Below are positions 5,785 to 51,600 of a stretch of DNA of 64,000 nt, piece by piece. This DNA is from Moniliella sp. 'wahieum' (Eukaryota), in assembly GCA_003971905.1 (NCBI GenBank), contig RSEE01000128.1:62001-126000 (forward strand), in the 5' to 3' direction. Position 1 is the stretch's first letter, and each line of letters begins with the position of its first letter. Below the pieces are notes generated by a model that worked only from the letters and a program-made list of their open reading frames with translations, had not been told where the DNA came from and did no database searches. The translations under genes and the position numbers were made by a program.

Positions 5785-7415
5785 ATGTCCGACTCCATCC
5801 ACAGCCAGTACGACACGCTCCTCATCCTCGACTTTGGCTCGCAGTACAGCCACCTCATCACGCGCCGCTGCCGCGAGCTCAATGTGTACTGCGAGATGCT
5901 GCCGTGCACGCAGCGCATCAAGGACCTCGACTGGACCCCCAAGGGCATCATCCTTTCCGGCTCGCCCTACTCGGTGTACGACGAGGGAGCGCCGCGCGTC
6001 GACCCAGACGTGTTTACCCTCGGTGTGCCTGTGCTTGGCATCTGCTACGGCCTGCAGGAGATTGCGTGGAACCATGGCGGGCGGGTGGACCCATGCGACC
6101 ACCGTGAATACGGCAGTGCCGATTTGGACATTGTCGTGACGGGCAATGCACACCTGGATGCGCTGTTTACCAATTTGGGGCCTAAGATGACCGTGTGGAT
6201 GTCGCACGGCGACCAGCTCAGTAAGTTGCCGGAGGACTTTGCTGTGATTGCCAAGACGCCCACGGCGCCCTATGCTGCGATTGCCCACAAGACCAAGCCC
6301 ATCTACGGTGTCCAATTCCATGCCGAGGTCACCCACTCGCAGCAGGGCGACAAGATCTTTGATTCGTTTGTCACCATTTGCCAGTGCCGCCGCGACTGGA
6401 CCATGTCGACGTTCATTGACAAGGAGATTGCGCGCATTCGCGAGCTGGTCGGTCCCAAGGGCCGTGTGTTGGGCGCGATTTCCGGCGGCGTCGACTCGTC
6501 CGTCGCGGCCAAGTTGATGCACGAGGCGATTGGCGACCGCTTCCACGCTGTCATGGTCGACAATGGCGTGCTGCGTGCCAACGAGGCGGCGCAGGTGGAG
6601 CAGATGCTGAGCAAGGACTTGGGTGTCAACTTGACTGTCGTTGACGCCTCGGACCTGTTCCTGTCTCGCCTCGAGGGAGTCGAGGACCCCGAGAAGAAGC
6701 GCAAGATCATCGGTAACACCTTTATCAACGTGTTCGAAGAAGAAGCGGCCAAGATTGAGGCCGAGGCAGACAAGGAGGAGACTGCTGCTTTGGCCGCTGG
6801 CAAGGCGTCCGAAGCCAAGGGCAAATTTGAGTGGCTTCTCCAAGGCACGTTGTACCCCGACGTGATCGAGTCCATCTCCTTCAAGGGACCTTCCGCGACG
6901 ATCAAGACGCACCACAATGTGGGTGGCCTGTTGGAGGACATGAAGCTCAAGCTGATTGAGCCGTTGCGTGAACTGTTCAAGGACGAAGTTCGTGCTCTAG
7001 GCCGCGTGATGGGCATTCCGGAGCACCTGGTCGGTCGGCACCCATTCCCCGGCCCCGGTCTGGCCATCCGTATCCTCGGTCCCGTCACGCGGGAGCAGGT
7101 CAAAATCCTCCAACAAGCCGACCAGATCTACATTGACGAGATTCGCAAGGGCGGGTTTTACGACCAGATCAGCCAAGCGTTTGCTGTGCTGCTGCCCGTG
7201 CGCGCAGTCGGGGTGCAGGGGGACAAGCGGACGTACGACCAAGTGATTGCACTCCGTGCTGCCCAGACCACCGACTTTATGACGGCCACCTGGTTCCCGT
7301 TCCCGTACGACTTCCTCTCCCGCGTGTCCAACCGCATCACCAACGAAGTCGCAGGCATCAACCGCGTCGTGCTCGATATCTCCTCAAGCCTCCCGCTACC
7401 ATCGAGTGGCTCTAG
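5785..7415 (+). CDS. GUA1: GMP synthase (glutamine-hydrolysing)
   Basis: Motifs [56 protein letters not shown] and HPFPGPGL. The canonical ending KPPATIEWL* is restored by one base at about 7385 (TAG 7413-7415). Confidence 0.97.
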
Positions 7416-27342: not shown

Positions 27343-27497
27343 GGACCCACACCTGCATCTACGTTGATTCTTCTTTCCCTTGCTAGAGATACTTGGCCTG
27401 GCGGTGGCCTGCGCAGGGGGCACTGGGACAGAACGCGTGCTAGGCACAGGAGATAGATAACGGGGACAGGTAGGAGCAGGGAGAGGGAGGGTGGGGA

Positions 27498-28372
27498 CTA
27501 GGCATCGTCCGCCTGGAAGACCATACCATGGAACGCCGTCTCAGCCCGACCGAGATCGATGATGCCCTCGTCGCGAAGACCTTGTTTTTTGTAGAACCCC
27601 ACTGCGGTCGGGACCGCATTGAGCAAGAGGGGATCCCCTTCTTTCCAGCCTGCACCACGCCAGCGGGCTTGTCCCCGTCCTGAGGCTGCGCCTCGAGCGC
27701 CTCAACCTTGGCCTGGGCAAACAGTTTGGCGCCCACGCCCATTCCTTGGGCCGAGGGATCCACAACGAAAATGTTCACCACTGCGACAGAAGCGGTCAGC
27801 AGTCAGCGTACCCAAAGAAGGAAGGACGTACAGAGAAGACTATGGCTCGGTACATGCGCACGTTCCACGTCTTGCATCCCTGGATCATATCCTGAAACGC
27901 GGGACGATTGAAGCCAGGCGGGTCGGCCCAACGGGCGGCAAAAGCGCATCGGCCTCGTCCAACTTTTCTTGGCCTCCTCGTTTTGCGGACTGGGAGCAAA
28001 ATGTAGACCATCGCACCGACCAGACGGGTGGAGGCGTGCTGGAGCGCGGTGGCCTTCCACAAATACGTGCGGTACGGGCCGCGGAGCGCGAGCTGCGTGG
28101 GATCGGTCATGGCGAGGTAGGCGCGCTGCAGACACGTTGTCGCCATGCGTACAGCTCGGCCTTGGGGGCGGCCGGCCGGGAAGTGGGCGGGGACCGAGGC
28201 GCCGAGGGCTGCAAGCGGGGAGCGGCGGGAGGGGAGCGGGTTAGCGCAGTTCGCACGGCACAGGCAGGGAATCGGACGCGTGCGCACCATCCTCAAAGAT
28301 CTCGGCGAGACGAGGCAGGTCCGCGGCACGCCGGGCGGGGCCGCAGACGACCTGAGATGGGGAGGAAGCCAT
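27498..28372 (-). CDS. GNAT-family N-acetyltransferase; intron about 27781-27831
   Basis: ADLPRLAEIF; motif A FVVDPSAQGMGVGAKL; motif B (after a frameshift) NAVPTAVGFYKKQGL. Confidence 0.8.
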
Positions 28373-29653: not shown

Positions 29654-30339
29654 TCAGTCGTCGCGCTGGACCGGGTCGCCCTTGGTATAGATGATTGTAT
29701 CCTGAGCCACAAAGCAGTAGTCGCCCGGGTGCATGTCGATGAGCTTGAATGTGACGTGGCACAGGCCGCGGCGGACAGTGAACGTGTCGCCGCGGTGGAC
29801 AGGGCGATAGGCTTCTTCGAAAAAGTAAGGCTGGAGAAACGTGTCGAGGAGGTCGTCGAGCTCATCATCTCCCATGCCCTCAACTGAGTCGGCCAAGGGC
29901 AGGACGTGGATGTACTCGCCGTACGGAACGTCGGTGCAAGCCGAGAGAAAAACCAGGCTGCCGCTGGACGCGCAGGTTGCCACATGCGCCCGTGGTCAGG
30001 CCAATCTGGCTGTCCTCCATGTCGGGGTCAGACAAGGCAAGCAACACCGTGTCCGTTTCTCCTCGCCCTGGAGCAGGATGGTGTCCCCACGGGCCAACCC
30101 CAGCTGCCGCATCGTCGTTTCGGACAGGCAGGCGACCGAGTCGTCGTCCATCGTCGACGCTTCGACAAAGAGTAGGTTGGCGGCTGGAATGCCAGCGGTG
30201 GGGGGTCAGATGCCCCGCACGGAATAGGAGGCGAGCGAGCCCGAGACAAGAGGCACGTACCGCGCTGCTGGCGCACGGGCGCCGTCGCCGTCGGCTCGGC
30301 TGTGGCGGACTTTGCTGCGGGACTGGCGTCGCCGGTCAT
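29654..30339 (-). CDS. Cdc48/p97 N-domain-only paralog (no AAA ATPase modules); intron 30184-30260; two frameshifts
   Basis: NLLFVEASTMDDDSVACLSETTMRQLGLARGDTILLQG..DTVLLALSDPDMEDSQIGL..NLRV..CTDVPYGEYIHVLPLADSVEG..FLQPYFFEEAYRPVHRGDTFTVR..VTFKLIDMHPGDYCFVAQDTIIYTKGDPVQRDD* is collinear with the whole Cdc48 N domain. Confidence 0.85.
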
Positions 30340-30351
30340 CGTCGCAGCAGG

Positions 30352-30480
30352 TGGGCAGGTGGGCAGGGGGCAGGGAGCAGGGGGCAGGGGGCAGGGAGCA
30401 GGGGGCAGGGGGCAGGAGCAGGGGGCAGGGGCAGGGAGCAGGGGGCAGGGAGCAGGGGGCAGGGGGCAGGGGGCAGGGGG
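30352..30480. repeat. G-rich 7-bp tandem array (GGGGCAG/GGAGCAG)n, about 18 units
   Basis: Directly visible, immediately upstream of the Cdc48-N ATG. Confidence 0.92.
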
Positions 30481-31005
30481 GAGGAGTGGAGTGGATGGTC
30501 GATGGGCGATGGAGCCCACCTAAGGCCTAGCCGCTGGCCACGCGGGGCGGGTGAGCAGTGTGTGCACCGGTGACTGGCTGCGCTGCCATCAACGTTGAAG
30601 TTCAGCTGAACCGAAGCGACCAGCGAGCGTTCTGCTCCCACCGAACCGCCTTCGGACAGGGCGAGGGGCGAATGGAGTGGGCCACATGCCATCTACGCCA
30701 AGAAGTATCCGGCTGTGACTACCTCGATTCTGTCGCCGTCTTGACCGCCGTCGTCTCTGGCAGCGGGAGGGGGCGGAAATGGGGGGTGCGGCCACTCTCT
30801 CCGCGTCGGCTGCTGCCACTGTGCGCTTCTTGGCATGCTACTGAAGCTACGCCCGCAGCTACGCGCCATGTCCATGTGCCCTTCTTCCCGCCGATGGGAC
30901 GCAGGCCGTCTGGAGGAGGAGGAGGAGGCGGCGGCGGCGGCGCCCGAGGTTGCCGTCGTCTGTCCCGACATCTCCGATGGCCCCAGCGCAATTCGCCGCT
31001 CGAGC

Positions 31006-31131: not shown

Positions 31132-32604
31132 ATGACCGACGACTGGACCGCGTCGACGAACGAGGCCACGACGCTTGCGCTCGTCGGCACCCCCCACACC
31201 TTCCCCCGACCTTCACCTACCCATCTTTGGCGACGCCGAGGCCGTGTGGGGCTACCGCCACCCGCGCATCCGCCTCGCCCTCGGCTCGGCCAACCTGCGC
31301 ACCCTCCTCCACGTCGACTGGGCCGCACGCAACGACCAGGCAGGCAAGACGGTGGACGATGTGGCGGGGACGCTGCTGCCGTTTCTTGCGCCCGACGCGC
31401 GCCTCGCCTCGTCCGACGAGGACTACCAACTCTGTGCCGAGCTCGAGTCCGAGCAGGCCGCCTTCCGCCCGCCGGGCGAGGTCATTGCCCAATCACCCTA
31501 CCGCGTAAAAAAAGGCAAGGCGCGCTGGGCTTTCCTCCCGTGGTGCGGGGGTCGGGCGCGGGGCCGGAACTGGCGCCGACGCCGGAGCCTCGTCCACCGC
31601 CCCTCCACCCCAAGACGGACGGAAGTTCGAGATTGTGCGCTGTACCTGGCAGACGCCTGGGTTTGCGCCGCTGTTTCTTCGGTTGCGGGTACTTACGCTG
31701 CTCTTCATCGAGGGTGCGTCGTACTTTAGCCTGGACGAGCCTGGGTGGGAATTCCTGCTGTTGTACGAGCGGGTGGGCGAGGCAGGCTACGTGTTTGCTG
31801 GCTTTACCTCGCTCTATCACTTTTGGGTGTTCCCGGCCACGTCACGCGTGCGTCTGTCGCAGTTTCTCATCCTTCCCCGTTCCAGCACCAAGGCCTGGGC
31901 AGTCACCTGTACGCAGCGGTGCACAACCTTGTCCTCCGTGCTGGGCCGGGACCTTTCCCGCCCGCGCCGGGGGTGGAGGTGAGTGTGGCTGAGTTGACGG
32001 TCGAAGATCCGTCCGAAGCGTTTGATGCGCTCCGGGACCAAAACGATTTGCTCCGTCTGCTCCGGCCGGCCGAGGCGGCAGCGCTAGCGCCGATGGATGG
32101 CGTGCCCGTAGTGACCGAGGTGCGCGACGCGCTCGAGGCGGGCAAACTGGTGCCGCCGCTGGACGATGGCTGGGCGCGCGCCCAGCGCGCCACGCTCCGC
32201 CTCGCCGAGCGGCAGTGGGAACGCCTGCTGGAAATGGTGTCGCTCATGGCGGTCGTGCGCGCCGGACGGAGGGAAGGGTGGCGCATGTACCGGCGCATGG
32301 TCAAGCAGCGTCTCTACGCAAGAACGCCGACTGCGCCCAGCTCGACGCGATCACACGGCGGGTGAAGCTGCAGGAGACGTATGAGAATGTGGTGCGCGAG
32401 TATGGGGAGCGGGTGGGGGTGGCGGTGGCGGAGGCGGAGCTGCGGGAGGGGCTGCCGGCGGACCTTGTGCCGGTGGCGGAGGAGGAGGAGGAGGAGGAGG
32501 AAGAAGACGAAGACGAAACCCCCGGTGTGGGCGACAAGCGGACGCTGGCGTGGCTGCAGCAGCAGCTGGGCGCTAACAAGCGTTCTCGCCTCGACGAGCA
32601 ATAA
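31132..32604 (+). CDS. HAT1: Histone acetyltransferase type B catalytic subunit; frameshifted
   Basis: [57 protein letters not shown] and [16 protein letters not shown]. Confidence 0.95.
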
Positions 32605-32721: not shown

Positions 32722-35700
32722 ATGCCGTCCCCGTCCCCGCCGCCGCCCGAGCACGCGCCCCGCGCTCCAGCGCCAACACCGACACCGACGCCGACGTCGA
32801 TGCCGACGACGACGTCGACGCCAAGCCGCCGACGGCCGAGGCGCAGCGGCAAGCCGCCGAGTCGATGCGGCGGTTCAGCTACCTGCTAGGCCAGACCGAC
32901 CTGTTCCAGCACTTTCTGCGCCTCAAGCAGCAGCGCGACCCTGCCTTTGCCGCCGCCGTCGCGCGTGCTTCTCCGCACCTCGCCGCGCCGTCTGCCGCGG
33001 GCAGCGGGGGCCACACGCGCCGCGCGCTCCCCGCCTCCTCGTCCTCCGCCCCCCGCCGACGCAAGACCGAGAAGGAGGAGGACGCGGAGCTGCTGCAGAC
33101 CGAGGACGATGTGATGTGTTTTTCGGAGTCGCCGGCGTACGTGCATGGCACTCTACGACCGTACCAGATCGACGGGCTGAACTGGCTCGTCTCGCTCTAC
33201 CACAACCACCTCAATGGCATTCTGGCCGACGAGATGGGTCTGGGCAAGACGCTACAGACGATTTCCTTCCTTGGCTATCTCAAGCACGTCGCCGGTCTGC
33301 CGCGCTACTACCTCGTGATCGTGCCCAAGTCCACGCTGGACAATTGGCGACGCGAATTCACCCGCTGGGTACCCACGTTTGACACGCTCGTCTTGACTGG
33401 CACCAAGGAAGAACGCGCCGAGACAATTGCGACGCGCTTGGTGCCCGGTACATTTGATGTGCTGATCACGACGTACGAAGTATGTCTGCGGGAAAAGGCT
33501 GCGTTGCACAAGATCACATGGGAGTACATTGTGATTGATGAGGCGCACCGGATCAAAAATGCCAGCTCGCAATTGGCCCAGATTGTCCGCTCTTTCCCCT
33601 CGCGCGGCCGGTTGCTGATTACCGGGACGCCGTTGCAAAACAATTTGTTGGAACTCTGGGCGCTGCTCAACTTTCTCCTCCCGGACGTTTTTGCCTCCGA
33701 AGCCGACTTTCATGAATGGTTTGCCGGTTCTGGTTCCGGCTCGGATTCCGGTTCGGCTCGGATGCTGGATCCGCCGCCGAAGAAGGGGTGGTGCAGCAGT
33801 TGCACCAGGTGCTGCGGCCGTTTTTGCTGCGCCGGGTCAAGGCGGATGTGGAGAAGAGTTTGTTGCCGAAAAAGGAGGTGAATCTGTACGTGGGCATGAC
33901 GGAGATGCAGCGGAAATGGTACAAGGCCTTGTTGGAAAAGGACATTGATGCTGTCAATGGTTCGGTCGGCAGCAAGGAAGGCAAGACGCGACTGCTGAAC
34001 ATTGTGATGCAGCTGCGCAAGTGCTGCAACCATCCGTACCTGTTTGATGGCGCCGAGCCCGGACCGCCCTATACCACAGCACGAACCCTGGTCCAGAACG
34101 CGGGCAAGATGCTGGTGCTGGACAAGCTATTGCGCTACCTCAAGGCCAAGCAGTCTCGTGTCCTCATCTTTTCCCAAATGAGCCGCATGCTGGACATTCT
34201 GGAGGATTACTGTTACCTCCGCGAGTATGGTACGTCCCGCTCCTGTTTTTTTTTTTGGTTGTTTGTTTCTCTGTTCTTGCCTTGCTCACCTGCCCCCTCC
34301 CCCCACACCAGAGTACTGCCGAATCGACGGCAGCACGGCGCACGAGGACCGCGTGACGGCGATTGACGAGTACAATGCGCCGGGCAGCAGCAAATTTGTG
34401 TTTTTGCTCACGACGCGCGCGGGCGGGTTGGGCATCAACCTGACGTCGGCGGATGTGGTGGTGCTCTTTGACAGCGACTGGAACCCGCAGGCGGATTTGC
34501 AAGCGATGGACCGTGCGCACCGGATCGGGCAGACGAAACAGGTGTACGTGTATCGGCTGGTAACGGAGCACGCGGTGGAGGAACGTGTGCTGGAACGGGC
34601 GCAGCAAAAGCTTCGGTTGGACCAGCTTGTGATCCAGCAGGGACGCACCGTGCCCAAGGGACAGAGTAAGGCCGAGTTGGTGGATATGCTGCAGCATGGT
34701 GCCGAGCAGATCATCCGTAACGATGCGCCGCTCTTGGCCGACGAGCAAATTGAGCGCATCATTGCCGAGGGGGAAGAGCGCACACAGGCACTGCAAGCCA
34801 AGTATGCGCATTTGGGACTCGACGCACTCACGGCACACAGCGAGGGCGGGACGTACGAATGGGAAGGCAAGGATTTCCGTCCGGACGCGACCGGACCCAA
34901 GCGACTGTGGATCGAACCGGGCAAACGAGAACGTCATACCAACTACAACATTGATGGGTACTATCGTCAGATTTCCGGTGTGCCCGCGCGCCAAGCCCAC
35001 GGCCCCCGACCACATGGCCTGCTCGCGCTCAACGAGTGGCAGTTCTTCCCGCCCCGCCTCGCCGAGCTGCAGGAGAAGGAAGTGCTGGCATACCAAAAGA
35101 GCGTGGGGTACGTGCCGCCGGTGCGGGTCAAGGAGGGGGAAAGCGAGGCGGAAGCCGAGGCGGCGCAGCAGGCCGAGCAGGCGCAGATTGAGCAGGCAGA
35201 AGCGTTGACGGAGGAGGAGCAAGCCGAGAAGGCGCAGCTGGCCCAGCAGGGGTTCCCCACGTGGTCCAAGCGCGACCTGAGCTACTTTGTGCGCGGGTGC
35301 GAAAAGTACGGCCGCGGGGCGTACCGCGAGATGGCGGCCGACTGGCTCGACGGCGAGGGCGGCAAGACAGAGGCGGAGATCCGGGCGTATGCGCGGTGTT
35401 TTTTGTGCGCGGGGCGCGGCGGAGCTGGAAGGATGGGACAAGTATGTGGCGCGGATCGAGGAGGCGGCCGGGCGGCGCAAGAAGACGCAGGCGCAGGAGA
35501 AGGCGCTGCGGGCGTGGGTGGCGCAGTACGGCGGGCAGATGGGCGCGATGGAGCTGCCGTATGCGAGCGGCACGTCGGCGTACAGCGAGACGGAGGACAA
35601 GTTTCTGCTTGTGCGGCTCGCGCACCACGGGCTGGGCGAGGGCGTGTACGACACGATCCGCCACGAGATCCTCGCCTCGCCGCTCTTCCGCTTCGACTGG

Positions 35701-48678: not shown

Positions 48679-51600
48679 ATGGCGCTCAACGTCAAGCAGT
48701 TCGGAAGCACCAATGTGCGGTGCGTGACGCTGATTGGCCATGTGGACCACGGCAAGTCGTCCTATGCCGACTCGCTGCTGGCCGCCAACGGGATCATTAG
48801 TTCGCGCATGGCGGGCCAGGTGCGGTACCTGGATGCGCGCGAGGACGAGCAAGAGCGCGGGATCACAATGGAAGCAAGTGCGGTGAGTCTTGTGTTCAAG
48901 CTGCGCAAACATGCTGCTTTGACTGCCCGCTCGCACGACGCTCCGCCCGGGGCAGAGGCCAAGGCGGAGGCCAAGGCAGAGCCCGACCCGGTCGAGGTGG
49001 AGGACTACATGATCAACCTCATCGATACCCCGGGCCATGTCGACTTCTCCTCCGAGGTGTCTTCGGCGAGCAGGCTGTGCGATGGCGCACTGGTGATTGT
49101 GGATGTGGTCGAGGGCGTCTGCACGCAGACCATCACGGTGCTGCGGCAAGCATGGACCGATCGGTTGCGGCCCATCTTGGTGCTCAACAAGATGGACCGG
49201 TTGGTGACTGACTTGCGCCTCACCCCGATTGAGGCGTACCACCACCTGACCCAGGTGTTGGAGAATGTGAATGCAGTCATGGGTTCTTTCTTTGCGTCGG
49301 AGCGGATGGAGGTGGACGAGCGGTGGCACGAGGAGCGCGACAAGCGTCTTGCCGCCCGCCGCGACACGGCCGTTGCCGAGCCCGAGGAAGAGACCGAGCC
49401 AGCGTTTGAGGAACTGAACGACGAAGACATTTACTTTGACCCGGCGCGCGGAAATGTGATTTTTGCCAGTGCGATCGACAACTGGGCGTTCCGGCTGGAG
49501 CGGTTCAGTGTCCTGTATGCCAAAAAGCTCGGGATCGAGGAGGCGCGTTTCCGCAAAGTGTTGTGGGGCGACTACTTTTTCGACCCCAAGGCCAAGCGCG
49601 TACTCACCCTCAAGCAAAAGGAAAAGGAAAACGCAACTTGAAGCCCATGTTTGTCCAGTTTGTCTTGGAAAACCTCTGGGCCGTGTACGAGTCGATGGTT
49701 GTCGATCGCGACCAGGAGAAGATCGAGAAGATTGTCAAGACGTTGGGGATCAAGGTCCTGCCGCGCGACCTGCGCGCCAAGGATACCTCGGCCTTGCGTA
49801 CCACCGTCTTCTCCCAATGGTTGCCTCTCGCCGCTTGCACATTCAGTGCCGTGGTGTCCAACGTGCCTTCGCCCCAGGAGGCGCAGGCCTACCGTGTGCC
49901 CAAGATCCTCCAGCCCGACCTGCCCTACTTCACCACCCCCGAGCAGCTTGCGCCCAAGACCGACGTGGAGAAGGACATGTTTGCCTCCCATGCCGGGCCC
50001 ACCGCGTACGGCGTGGCGTACGTGAGCAAGATGTTTGCTGTGCCGGCGCAGGACATGCCCGAGGCTAAGAAACGCCCGCTCACCGCGGCCGAGATGCGGG
50101 CCAAGGCACAAGAAGCACGCGAACGTGCGCGTGCCATCTCGGCTGCTACGGGCGCAGCGGTGGCAGACAAGCCGACGGAGCCCACGGAGCAGAACGGGAC
50201 CCGGGGCATCGACTTGGAGGCCCACGGCGCTGTGCCCGCTGCCACCACAGCAAGGGAGGAACGCAAACCCGACCCACCGCCAACGGGGGAGGTGCTAATG
50301 GGCTTTGCCCGGCTCTATAGCGGTACGCTCCAAGCCGGCCAGGCGATCCTTGCTGTCCTACCCAAGTACCGCCCCGAGCTCGGTCCGCGCCACCCTGCCA
50401 ACGCGCGCCACCTCAAGCGCGCCACGGTCGAGGCACTGTACATGCTCATGGGCCGGGAACTGGTGGCGGTGCGCGAGGTGCCAGCCGGCAACGTGTTTGG
50501 CATTCGTGGTTTGGACGGTACCGTCTTGCGCAACGCTACGCTCTTTGCGCCGCCCTCGGCCGGCTATGCCGACTTGGACGCCTACCTCGATGCGCCACCA
50601 GCCGTGACGCAGCAGCTTGTCAACTTGTCCACCGTCACCTCCTCGGCCGCGCCCATTGTGCGGGTAGCGTTGGAGCCTGTGAATCCTTGTGCGTATCTTG
50701 AGTCCCTTATCTTTGTGGGTGGTGGAGCGGGGCAGAGACTGACCTTGTGACGATCAAACCAACCAACGAACCAACCAACGAATCCAGCCGAGATCCCCAA
50801 GTTGGTCGAGGGCCTCAAGCTACTGAACCAGTCGGATCCGTGTGTGCAGGTGCTGGTACAGGAGACGGGAGAACATGTGATCATCGGTGCTGGGGAACTG
50901 CATGTGGAACGGTGCGTGCGCGACTTGGAGGAACGCTTTGCCAAGATCAAGATCCAAGTCTCGCCGCCGATTGTGCCCTTTCGTGAGACGGCGGTCAAGG
51001 CGGCCGACATGGCTGCGCCCAAGACCGAAGGCGCCCAACGCGGTACGGTACGTGGCAGCGTGGTGAATGGACTGGTGCAGTTCCAGTTGCGTGCCGTGCC
51101 GCTTCCCACGACCGTGACCGACTTTTTGCTCAAGCACGCGCCTCGATCCAACTCATGCTCCGCCGCGCCCTGCACGGCATGGAGGTCGGAGAGCAAGAGG
51201 ACGAGACAGAGGCCGAGGGTGAGGCCAAGGCTGCCGTCTCTCTCGCCGCGACTGGCGGGGAACGTCTGCTGGACCCCGAGGGCTTGTGGAGTGCCTTCCA
51301 CGCCGTTCTTGCCGCACTTCGCGAGCCCGAATGGAAAGGCGTGGCAGAACAGATTTGGGCATAGGACCGAAACAGGTAGGACCCAATTTGCTGATTGACC
51401 GGTCTGGCGTGCATCCGCTCGGCCTCAAGGCTCGCACCCTCAAGACCCCACGGGCTTGTCCGATGCGCTGGACACGGTGCATCTCGGCGCGGAGGCAGGT
51501 CCCATCCCAGTCCGTGCCGTGACCGATGCCGTGGAGGCGGGGTGGCAGATGGCCATGCAGGCGGGCCCGATGGCGGCCGAGCCGGTGCAGGGCATGGCGT

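Follow-up and report, generated by a model that had tools for sequence, protein, structure and literature searches.

A stretch of 64,000 nucleotides from Moniliella sp. 'wahieum' (contig RSEE01000128.1, positions 62,001 to 126,000; hereafter the window, with position 1 as its first letter) carries on its minus strand a divergent copy of the N domain of the ATPase Cdc48 (known as p97 or VCP in humans). That this copy is an N-domain homologue of Cdc48 is not in doubt, and it cannot be counted as a full member of the Cdc48 ATPase family, as both ATPase modules, D1 and D2, were searched for and not found in the 64 kb. Judging from its sequence, we see an even chance that the copy is a lineage-specific partial duplicate of CDC48 within the Ustilaginomycotina, kept under relaxed purifying selection, in which two apparent frame breaks are assembly errors and the predicted N-domain open reading frame (ORF) is in truth intact. 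The locus had been pointed out in an earlier reading of the DNA (the original prediction) as a stand-alone N-domain gene; that observation is confirmed herein, and the interpretation attached to it, a selected monomeric protein serving as a cofactor decoy or adaptor, is partly supported.

A Cdc48 N domain without ATPase modules

When five full-length Cdc48 proteins were compared with the window by tblastn, each of them yielded one significant match, at 30178..29657 (E-values from 1e-30 to 5e-44), which covered query residues ~32-211; all other matches in the 64 kb had E >= 1.4. A phmmer search of the PDB retrieved the N-domain chains of human p97 (E = 4.9e-37) and covered residues 24-193 in chains of 806 residues. 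A hidden Markov model (HMM) built from 66 full-length Cdc48 proteins was then run with --max on all 1472 six-frame ORF pieces of the window, and detected just three of them, at profile positions 28-74, 66-100 and 101-198. Neither D1 nor D2, even in a degenerate form, was found in these 1472 pieces, the next best hit having an independent E-value (i-E) of 1.4; similarly, the D2 AAA module and the C-terminal tail were not found in the window by tblastn or by the Cdc48 HMM. The absence of an ATPase, first claimed for the region downstream of the domain, thus extends over the entire window. Scored separately, the pieces stayed below the Pfam gathering scores (25.5 vs 35.1 bits for CDC48_N, PF02359, and 16.6 vs 22.4 bits for CDC48_2, PF02933), because the frame breaks split the domain.

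A feature search of the ESM Atlas with the unbroken 113-residue ORF returned clusters of CDC48_2, UFD1_N2 and PEX-1N fragments. The N domains of Ufd1, Pex1, NSF/Sec18 and archaeal VAT (VAT-N) all belong to the same double-psi barrel/beta-clam fold class as the copy; sequence identity, together with the PYF-EAYRP and DTII/DTVI motifs, assigns the copy to Cdc48 in particular. Its alignment extends along the entire Cdc48/p97/VCP N domain and also along the N-terminal tail, and the copy shares its end point with the isolated human N-domain constructs made in the laboratory (5epp, 5x4l and 3qc8). Unlike Cdc48/p97/VCP, it stands as a natural separate gene devoid of D1, D2 and the C-terminal tail. 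An ORF on the opposite strand (29782-30573) was also considered as the gene at this locus and rejected: it has no Pfam match, and its codon scores do not rise above +0.015, a value reached for exon 1 plus the first stretch of exon 2, and are otherwise negative or close to zero.

Divergence and constraint

The frame-corrected read-through of the copy, with X placed at the breaks, was aligned with canonical Cdc48 N domains along 167 positions (four rows span 145 to 167 of them). Its identity to seven N domains from Ustilaginomycotina, and to one duplicate record, amounts to 55-57%; for 21 from other eukaryotes the figure is 40-50%. At six diagnostic positions, the copy carries the Ustilaginomycotina state in three, vs one state of other fungi. 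In a maximum-likelihood tree, its branch measures 1.11 changes per site against a median of 0.061, and it attaches in the unresolved Ustilaginomycotina part, its exact place there being unsure. By this estimate the copy would have evolved ~18 times faster than canonical Cdc48 N domains since the duplication, and the constraint on it appears clearly relaxed.

This divergence bears on one explanation at once. It is hardly credible that the 5' end of a genuine CDC48 gene was misjoined or collapsed into the contig, even though the assembly is demonstrably error-prone at the level of single bases (see below). The Ustilaginomycotina Cdc48 N domains are 92-96% identical among themselves, a level to be expected of a genuine CDC48 of this subphylum, whereas the copy is only ~56% identical to them. 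Base errors, moreover, cannot yield 74 mostly conservative amino-acid replacements, and the copy is flanked by unremarkable genes present in single copy, namely HAT1 and ISWI to one side of it and Per1 with an FMO-like gene to the other.

The replacements themselves carry the mark of selection. Their mean BLOSUM62 score was +0.23, against -0.65 +/- 0.19 in 500 neutral simulations run to the divergence of the copy, and 0/500 reached the observed value. Sites invariant among 27 canonical sequences (a set from which P0015 and P0088 were omitted, one being a duplicate and one incomplete) were retained in 35 of 47 cases, as compared with 58 of 120 variable sites (Fisher p = 0.003), and this contrast was matched in 0.4% of the neutral simulations. 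Codon usage gave a similar picture. In a window with a G+C content of 63.6%, the positional G+C of the copy (0.65/0.43/0.81) is close to that of 8.2 kb of verified coding sequence from the same window (0.64/0.44/0.78). Each of the three pieces scores +0.32 to +0.35 bits per codon in its homologous frame, while the other frames are almost all negative, one reverse-strand frame of the first piece reaching +0.015. The stretch between the two breaks scores +0.35 bits per codon in the homologous frame, with a G+C content of 0.80 at third positions; the same frame just past the terminal TGA scores -0.39, with flat positional G+C. The remaining length differences from canonical Cdc48 are in-frame insertions of four codons and one codon. 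These patterns of replacement, invariant sites, codon usage and in-frame indels speak against neutral decay. The original prediction had held that the locus fits selection better than random decay, and the pattern of divergence indeed rejects pure neutral decay.

A fragment of CDC48 that was copied by chance, was never functional and has been decaying ever since is accordingly improbable. Such a relic would agree with the orphan status and very long branch of the copy and with the loss of 12 of the 47 invariant N-domain positions. The lack of further stop codons cannot be used against it: 18% of the neutral simulations also remained stop-free, and we discarded this feature as evidence of selection. 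On the other side stand the replacements, far more conservative than drift would give, the preferential sparing of invariant sites (p = 0.003-0.004), and a gene-like codon usage that ends exactly at the stop. Just two frame-changing indels have accumulated at ~44% amino-acid divergence, all others being in-frame, and the start codon and intron signals are intact.

Frame breaks and quality of the assembly

The coding sequence of the copy is interrupted by two frame breaks (Table 1). After ...GEEKR (CGG, 30055-30053), homology resumes as (D)TVLLALSD..., one base out of register, a base being missing at CGG|AC (30055-30051); the canonical counterpart is KKRRDTVLI, and only when the frame is shifted does the copy match it, as EEKR / (D)TVLL. 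The first frame is regained at CGG|C (29963-29960), past ...NLRVQ. The base deficits at the two breaks, one and two, amount to three in all, and with two residues restored the length of the copy at the breaks equals that of canonical NLRVKLGDMITVHAC exactly. Both breaks adjoin short G runs. They were also considered as small introns, a possibility rejected on the ground that the 30 codons between them are homologous coding sequence in the shifted frame and carry the full codon-usage signal.

Breaks of the same type were found in other genes of the window. In GMP synthase, the frame is lost at ~7385 (window 7380-7395), after TCCTCAAG, and the last nine residues, KPPATIEWL, which are found in a 95%-identical homolog, lie in another frame. 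In ISWI, the ATPase core switches frame within 33746-33779, at GGTTCGGCTCGG, where the aligned PDB chain residues are contiguous (300 / 299); at a second break, next to a run of six T's and a G run, the match to 1ofc_X breaks off with residue 153 at 35396 and is taken up in another frame with residue 154 at 35398. In EFL1/RIA1, the frame switches at 49614/49617, inside AAAAGGAAAAGGAAAA. All of these lie at short homopolymer runs and leave no room for an intron. HAT1 probably contains a fifth frame break of the window, at ~31877-31880, right after SQFLILP, the residues that follow (31877-31980) being in another frame; 16 chain residues correspond to 81-99 nt, again leaving no intron room, and part of this argument relies on a GNAT motif. 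The firm control breaks thus number four in ~5 kb of checked coding sequence, i.e., ~0.8 per kb.

The most probable source of the breaks in the copy is homopolymer error in what looks like an unpolished assembly, as breaks of the same type hit GMP synthase, ISWI and EFL1, none of which is at all likely to be a dead gene. The frameshifts had been marked as suspect from the beginning, and the four homopolymer breaks in three housekeeping genes, with the probable fifth in HAT1, bear this suspicion out. In an assembly with frequent homopolymer breaks in essential genes, apparent pseudogenes need confirmation at the level of reads.

Several further irregularities of the window were noted. An earlier frame change in HAT1, at 31492-31620, could be a real intron. 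On the minus strand at 27443-27802, two overlapping ORFs in different frames together resemble one small GNAT acetyltransferase; this may be a further frame break, the match being weak (Acetyltransf_7, E = 0.004, for one piece only). Within the EFL1 ORF, residues 267-300 (48898-49000), 34 in number, interrupt the alignment of the GTPase domain to the human protein (chain 79 to 84), which is otherwise contiguous, and may represent either an insertion specific to the lineage or an intron that is in frame and unspliced.

Structure of the locus

The features of the locus are listed in Table 1. Exon 2 is equivalent to human p97 residues ~22-193, and in the phmmer alignment to the PDB the copy ends six residues into the N-D1 linker, at p97 residue 193. 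The spliced N-domain frame and the terminal TGA right after GDPVQRDD, both described in the original prediction, are present in the sequence with all their elements, including the GTACGT, CTGAC and CAG signals of the intron.

Table 1. Features of the Cdc48 N-domain copy and of the adjoining sequence (positions in the window)
Feature	Position	Strand	Remarks
Exon 1	30261..30339	-	ATG 30339-30337, 26 codons and 1 base; N-terminal tail MTGDASPAAKSATAEPTATAPVRQQR
Predicted intron, 77 nt	30184..30260	-	5' GTACGT 30260-30255; CTGAC branch ~30209-30205, some 20 nt ahead of the 3' CAG; CAG ending 30184
Exon 2	29657..30183	-	Encodes both subdomains of the Cdc48 N domain (Nn, the double-psi barrel, and Nc) and the beginning of the N-D1 linker
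Frame break 1	30050..30055	-	Reads AAACGGACACGG; as if one base (a G of CGG|GAC) were lost
In-frame TGA of the assembled sequence	29996..29998	-	Lies among the 30 codons whose homology requires the shifted frame
Frame break 2	29960..29963	-	Reads CAGCGGCAGC; as if two bases were lost, or one were extra, at CGG|C
Stop TGA	29654..29656	-	Immediately 3' of GDPVQRDD (p97 G186-D193, N-D1 linker)
7-nt minisatellite (GCAGGGG) x 19.7	30347..30484	.	87% matches; Tandem Repeats Finder

The predicted intron is supported in several ways. Exon 1 is homologous to the N terminus of canonical Cdc48, its TATAPVR aligning with (V/P)ATAILR just before the splice, so that homology spans the predicted splice and reaches Met1. 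In the alignment to canonical Cdc48, removal of the intron keeps the frame and joins homologous residues. The GTACGT hexamer and the layout are those of the ISWI intron at ~34230-34310, the flanking exons of which are fixed by PDB alignments. The claim that the intron is intact is supported by these observations. A processed (retro-)pseudogene would be expected to have lost the introns of its parent and to carry a poly(A) remnant and target-site duplications. Here the coding sequence is split by the predicted intron of 77 nt, the signals of which are canonical, and no poly(A) tract was seen after the stop on reading of the sequence.

The N domain could also represent the first exons of a larger gene, spliced to downstream exons other than D1 and D2 in a fusion architecture, but this is most improbable. 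Some representative models do join a Cdc48 N domain to unrelated sequence, e.g., P0096 (458 residues) and P0100 (394 residues), and the indel errors of the assembly could in principle make false stops. Against this, the copy stays homologous and in frame as far as the TGA, inspection of the sequence ahead of that stop showed no usable 5' splice site, and the sliding coding profile is negative in all three frames for ~1.4 kb downstream (29650 to ~28200). Of 20 ORFs scanned, 13 lie wholly or mostly within 27.4-29.9 kb, and none of these has a Pfam domain save for the weak GNAT match described above.

The minisatellite lies eight bases upstream of the ATG of the copy and is G-rich on the plus strand. 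It sits in a 0.8-kb spacer common to the copy and the divergently oriented HAT1, the domains of which begin at ~31200 on the plus strand.

Residues on the adaptor surface and the D1-facing side

Residues were numbered as in p97 from the PDB alignment, and those of the shifted stretch from the Cdc48 N-domain alignment. The copy keeps Asp35, Val38, Arg53, Arg93, Tyr110, Tyr143, the 141-EAYRP-145 loop, Arg155 and Arg191. Five positions of interest are changed (Phe52 to Ala, Arg86 to Thr, Arg89 to Cys, Arg95 to Gln and Arg159 to Cys), and those of Arg89 and Arg159 are invariant in all 27 canonical sequences. Conservative changes were found at Phe131 (to Leu), Ile175 (to Phe) and His183 (to Tyr), and the two insertions place four residues after Gly125-Ile126 and one residue before EAYRP. 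We take Phe52, Arg53, Asp35 and Val38 to lie in the adaptor cleft, and Arg159 is presumably a disease site. The original prediction had stated that the core motifs of the domain are kept. This holds for Tyr110, Tyr143 and EAYRP and for the 35 invariant sites retained; it does not hold for the 12 replaced ones, Phe52 among them.

In PMC5389986, Tyr110 and Tyr143 are described as key residues for the binding of UBX and UBX-like (UBXL) domains. PMC5356007 describes contacts of Arg86 with Asp204 and Asp205 of the N-D1 linker, predicts like contacts for Arg93 and Arg95, and maps disease substitutions to the N-D1 interface. Set beside these data, the copy hints at a pattern, formed by a handful of residues, in which a good part of the adaptor surface survives and a number of the contacts with D1 and the linker do not. 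Such a combination is as expected for an N domain that lives without a D1 ring.

Relatives of the copy and of its neighbours

Short models with CDC48_N and CDC48_2 and without an AAA domain, as in the copy, exist elsewhere: P0004 (263 residues, Favolaschia claudopus, on a 2.6-Mb contig), P0098 (237 residues), P0096 and P0100. P0004 has 40% identity to the frame-1 read-through of the copy. The other three are 67-77% identical to canonical Cdc48 and ~42% identical to the copy, and judged by these identities they are independent events or truncated models, not one family with the copy.

Among the neighbouring genes, the GMP synthase of the window is 84-86% identical to its best named homologs (Sympodiomycopsis, Ustilago and Pseudozyma) and 83% identical to those of Parajaminaea and Jaminaea. 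It is 96% and 92% identical to two records from short contigs. These values fit an origin of the window in the Ustilaginomycotina; as no record in the protein database is identical, the proteome of this genome itself is missing from it.

Other records encountered in these searches call for comment. The two best representative matches to the copy are P0093 (501 residues), which has two partial N-domain matches and no AAA domain, and P0094 (880 residues), in which an AAA module is followed by a second N domain and then by another AAA module; both may be mis-assembled or tandem-duplicated Cdc48 genes. P0015 and P0277 (both labelled Adiantum nelumboides) and P0290 (labelled Actinomycetota bacterium) are Cdc48 or GMP synthase proteins of the Ustilaginomycotina type. 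The fern-labelled Cdc48 record has E-value, bits, identity and length as for a jgi fungal protein, and the fern- and bacterium-labelled GMP synthases are 79-80% identical to that of the window. These three records probably reflect fungal contamination or mislabelling.

Weighing of the alternatives

A number of points weigh against an intact and selected N-domain gene. The parent used in the comparisons was a stand-in, the consensus of present-day Ustilaginomycotina proteins and not the true parent. The codon-usage signal of exon 1 alone is about neutral. Phe52, now Ala, is a universally invariant position, and the helix at 84-91 is almost wholly changed, from MNRVVRNN to LTTGACGN; with 12 of 47 invariant sites lost and this helix rewritten, folding and adaptor affinity may be impaired. 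The signatures of constraint could date from an earlier functional or full-length state of the gene. The two breaks of the copy lie within 90 nt of each other, denser than in the control genes, and at the control rate two breaks in 0.6 kb have a Poisson probability of ~0.09 (by hand arithmetic). As this density is on the high side, the breaks may after all be real lesions.

Relatives are lacking as well. N-only orthologs in related genomes, to which the original prediction had looked for support, were not found in the protein databases searched. An exhaustive search of 1.84 billion cluster representatives gave 925 matches with E <= 1e-3, the best 150 of which are 29-55% identical to the copy; of these 150, the 70 that were compared are all nearer to canonical Cdc48 (44-94%) than to the copy (30-51%). 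A word-indexed search gave 12 matches (32-55% identical) among 90 candidates when proteins of 100-321 residues were considered, and 78 matches among longer proteins, the best at 48-49% and all of them canonical Cdc48. Since the lineage is poorly sampled in the databases, missing orthologs are weak evidence either way.

These points lend themselves to a different explanation, namely that the copy died as a gene only recently. It would be a paralogue confined to the N domain, or what is left of a once full-length paralogue, long maintained by selection and now a pseudogene with two real frameshifts. The locus would then yield at most a ~95-residue product ending at the TGA at 29998-29996. We regard this as possible, though somewhat unlikely. 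It takes the assembly as it stands, with both breaks and the in-frame TGA; it accords with the density of breaks set against ~0.8 per kb in the control genes, with the want of an ortholog and with the absence of an annotated model for the locus. Codon usage and conservative replacements, moreover, are signals that would outlast a recent death. On the contrary, the breaks lie at G runs and are of the same kind as those of GMP synthase, ISWI and EFL1, which are not all dead; the stretch between them keeps the full coding signal, and there are no other lesions in the copy.

The copy can also be compared with gene relics, i.e., truncated paralogues of essential genes. Like them, it comprises the 5' part only and is lineage-restricted, fast-evolving and unannotated. 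It differs from them in that it ends at a domain boundary with a stop of its own, has kept its start, intron and codon usage, and has replacements that are non-neutral.

A possible role for a free N domain

Under the reading that we favour, a partial duplication of CDC48 would have preserved the stretch that begins at Met1 and reaches the N-D1 linker, along with one intron and a stop of its own. The copy would since then have evolved as a coding sequence on which purifying selection was relaxed, rather than as a neutral relic. With the breaks as artefacts, the true locus would be an intact ORF of ~205 codons that encodes a free N domain. D1 is required for the formation of the p97 hexamer. The product, which has no D1, should therefore be monomeric and unable to join or form a hexamer. 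It may form one-to-one complexes with some of the UBX, UBX-like or SHP adaptors, and this binding would compete with, or buffer, the Cdc48 hexamer.

MicroProteins are domain-only competitors derived from multidomain proteins. Like them, the copy is a single interaction domain split from an oligomeric parent, and as a candidate of this kind it could titrate the partners of that parent. The decoy or adaptor role put forward in the original prediction (cofactor sink, dominant negative or adaptor) is plausible in this light. In its most specific form, an expressed free N domain of ~205 residues would act as a microProtein-type regulator in this fungal lineage that titrates or re-routes a subset of UBX/SHP adaptors, bound through the conserved Tyr110/Tyr143/EAYRP surface, and, having shed its D1-facing arginines, would therefore never dock on the ATPase ring; we consider this form doubtful on the sequence at hand. 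A literature search that did not reach subscription journals found neither a natural stand-alone Cdc48 N-domain gene nor such a regulator, and a term search in PMC5070193, a paper on the evolution of the family, gave zero matches for such a gene.

According to the review PMC5389986, Cdc48/p97 is controlled mainly by some 30 adaptors that compete for two N-domain sites. If our reading is true, the genome itself would supply a competitor for these sites in the form of a free N domain, and deletion or overexpression of the copy would offer a simple genetic handle on adaptor competition. The locus itself is a clean example of a partial duplicate of an essential gene that persists at a domain boundary.

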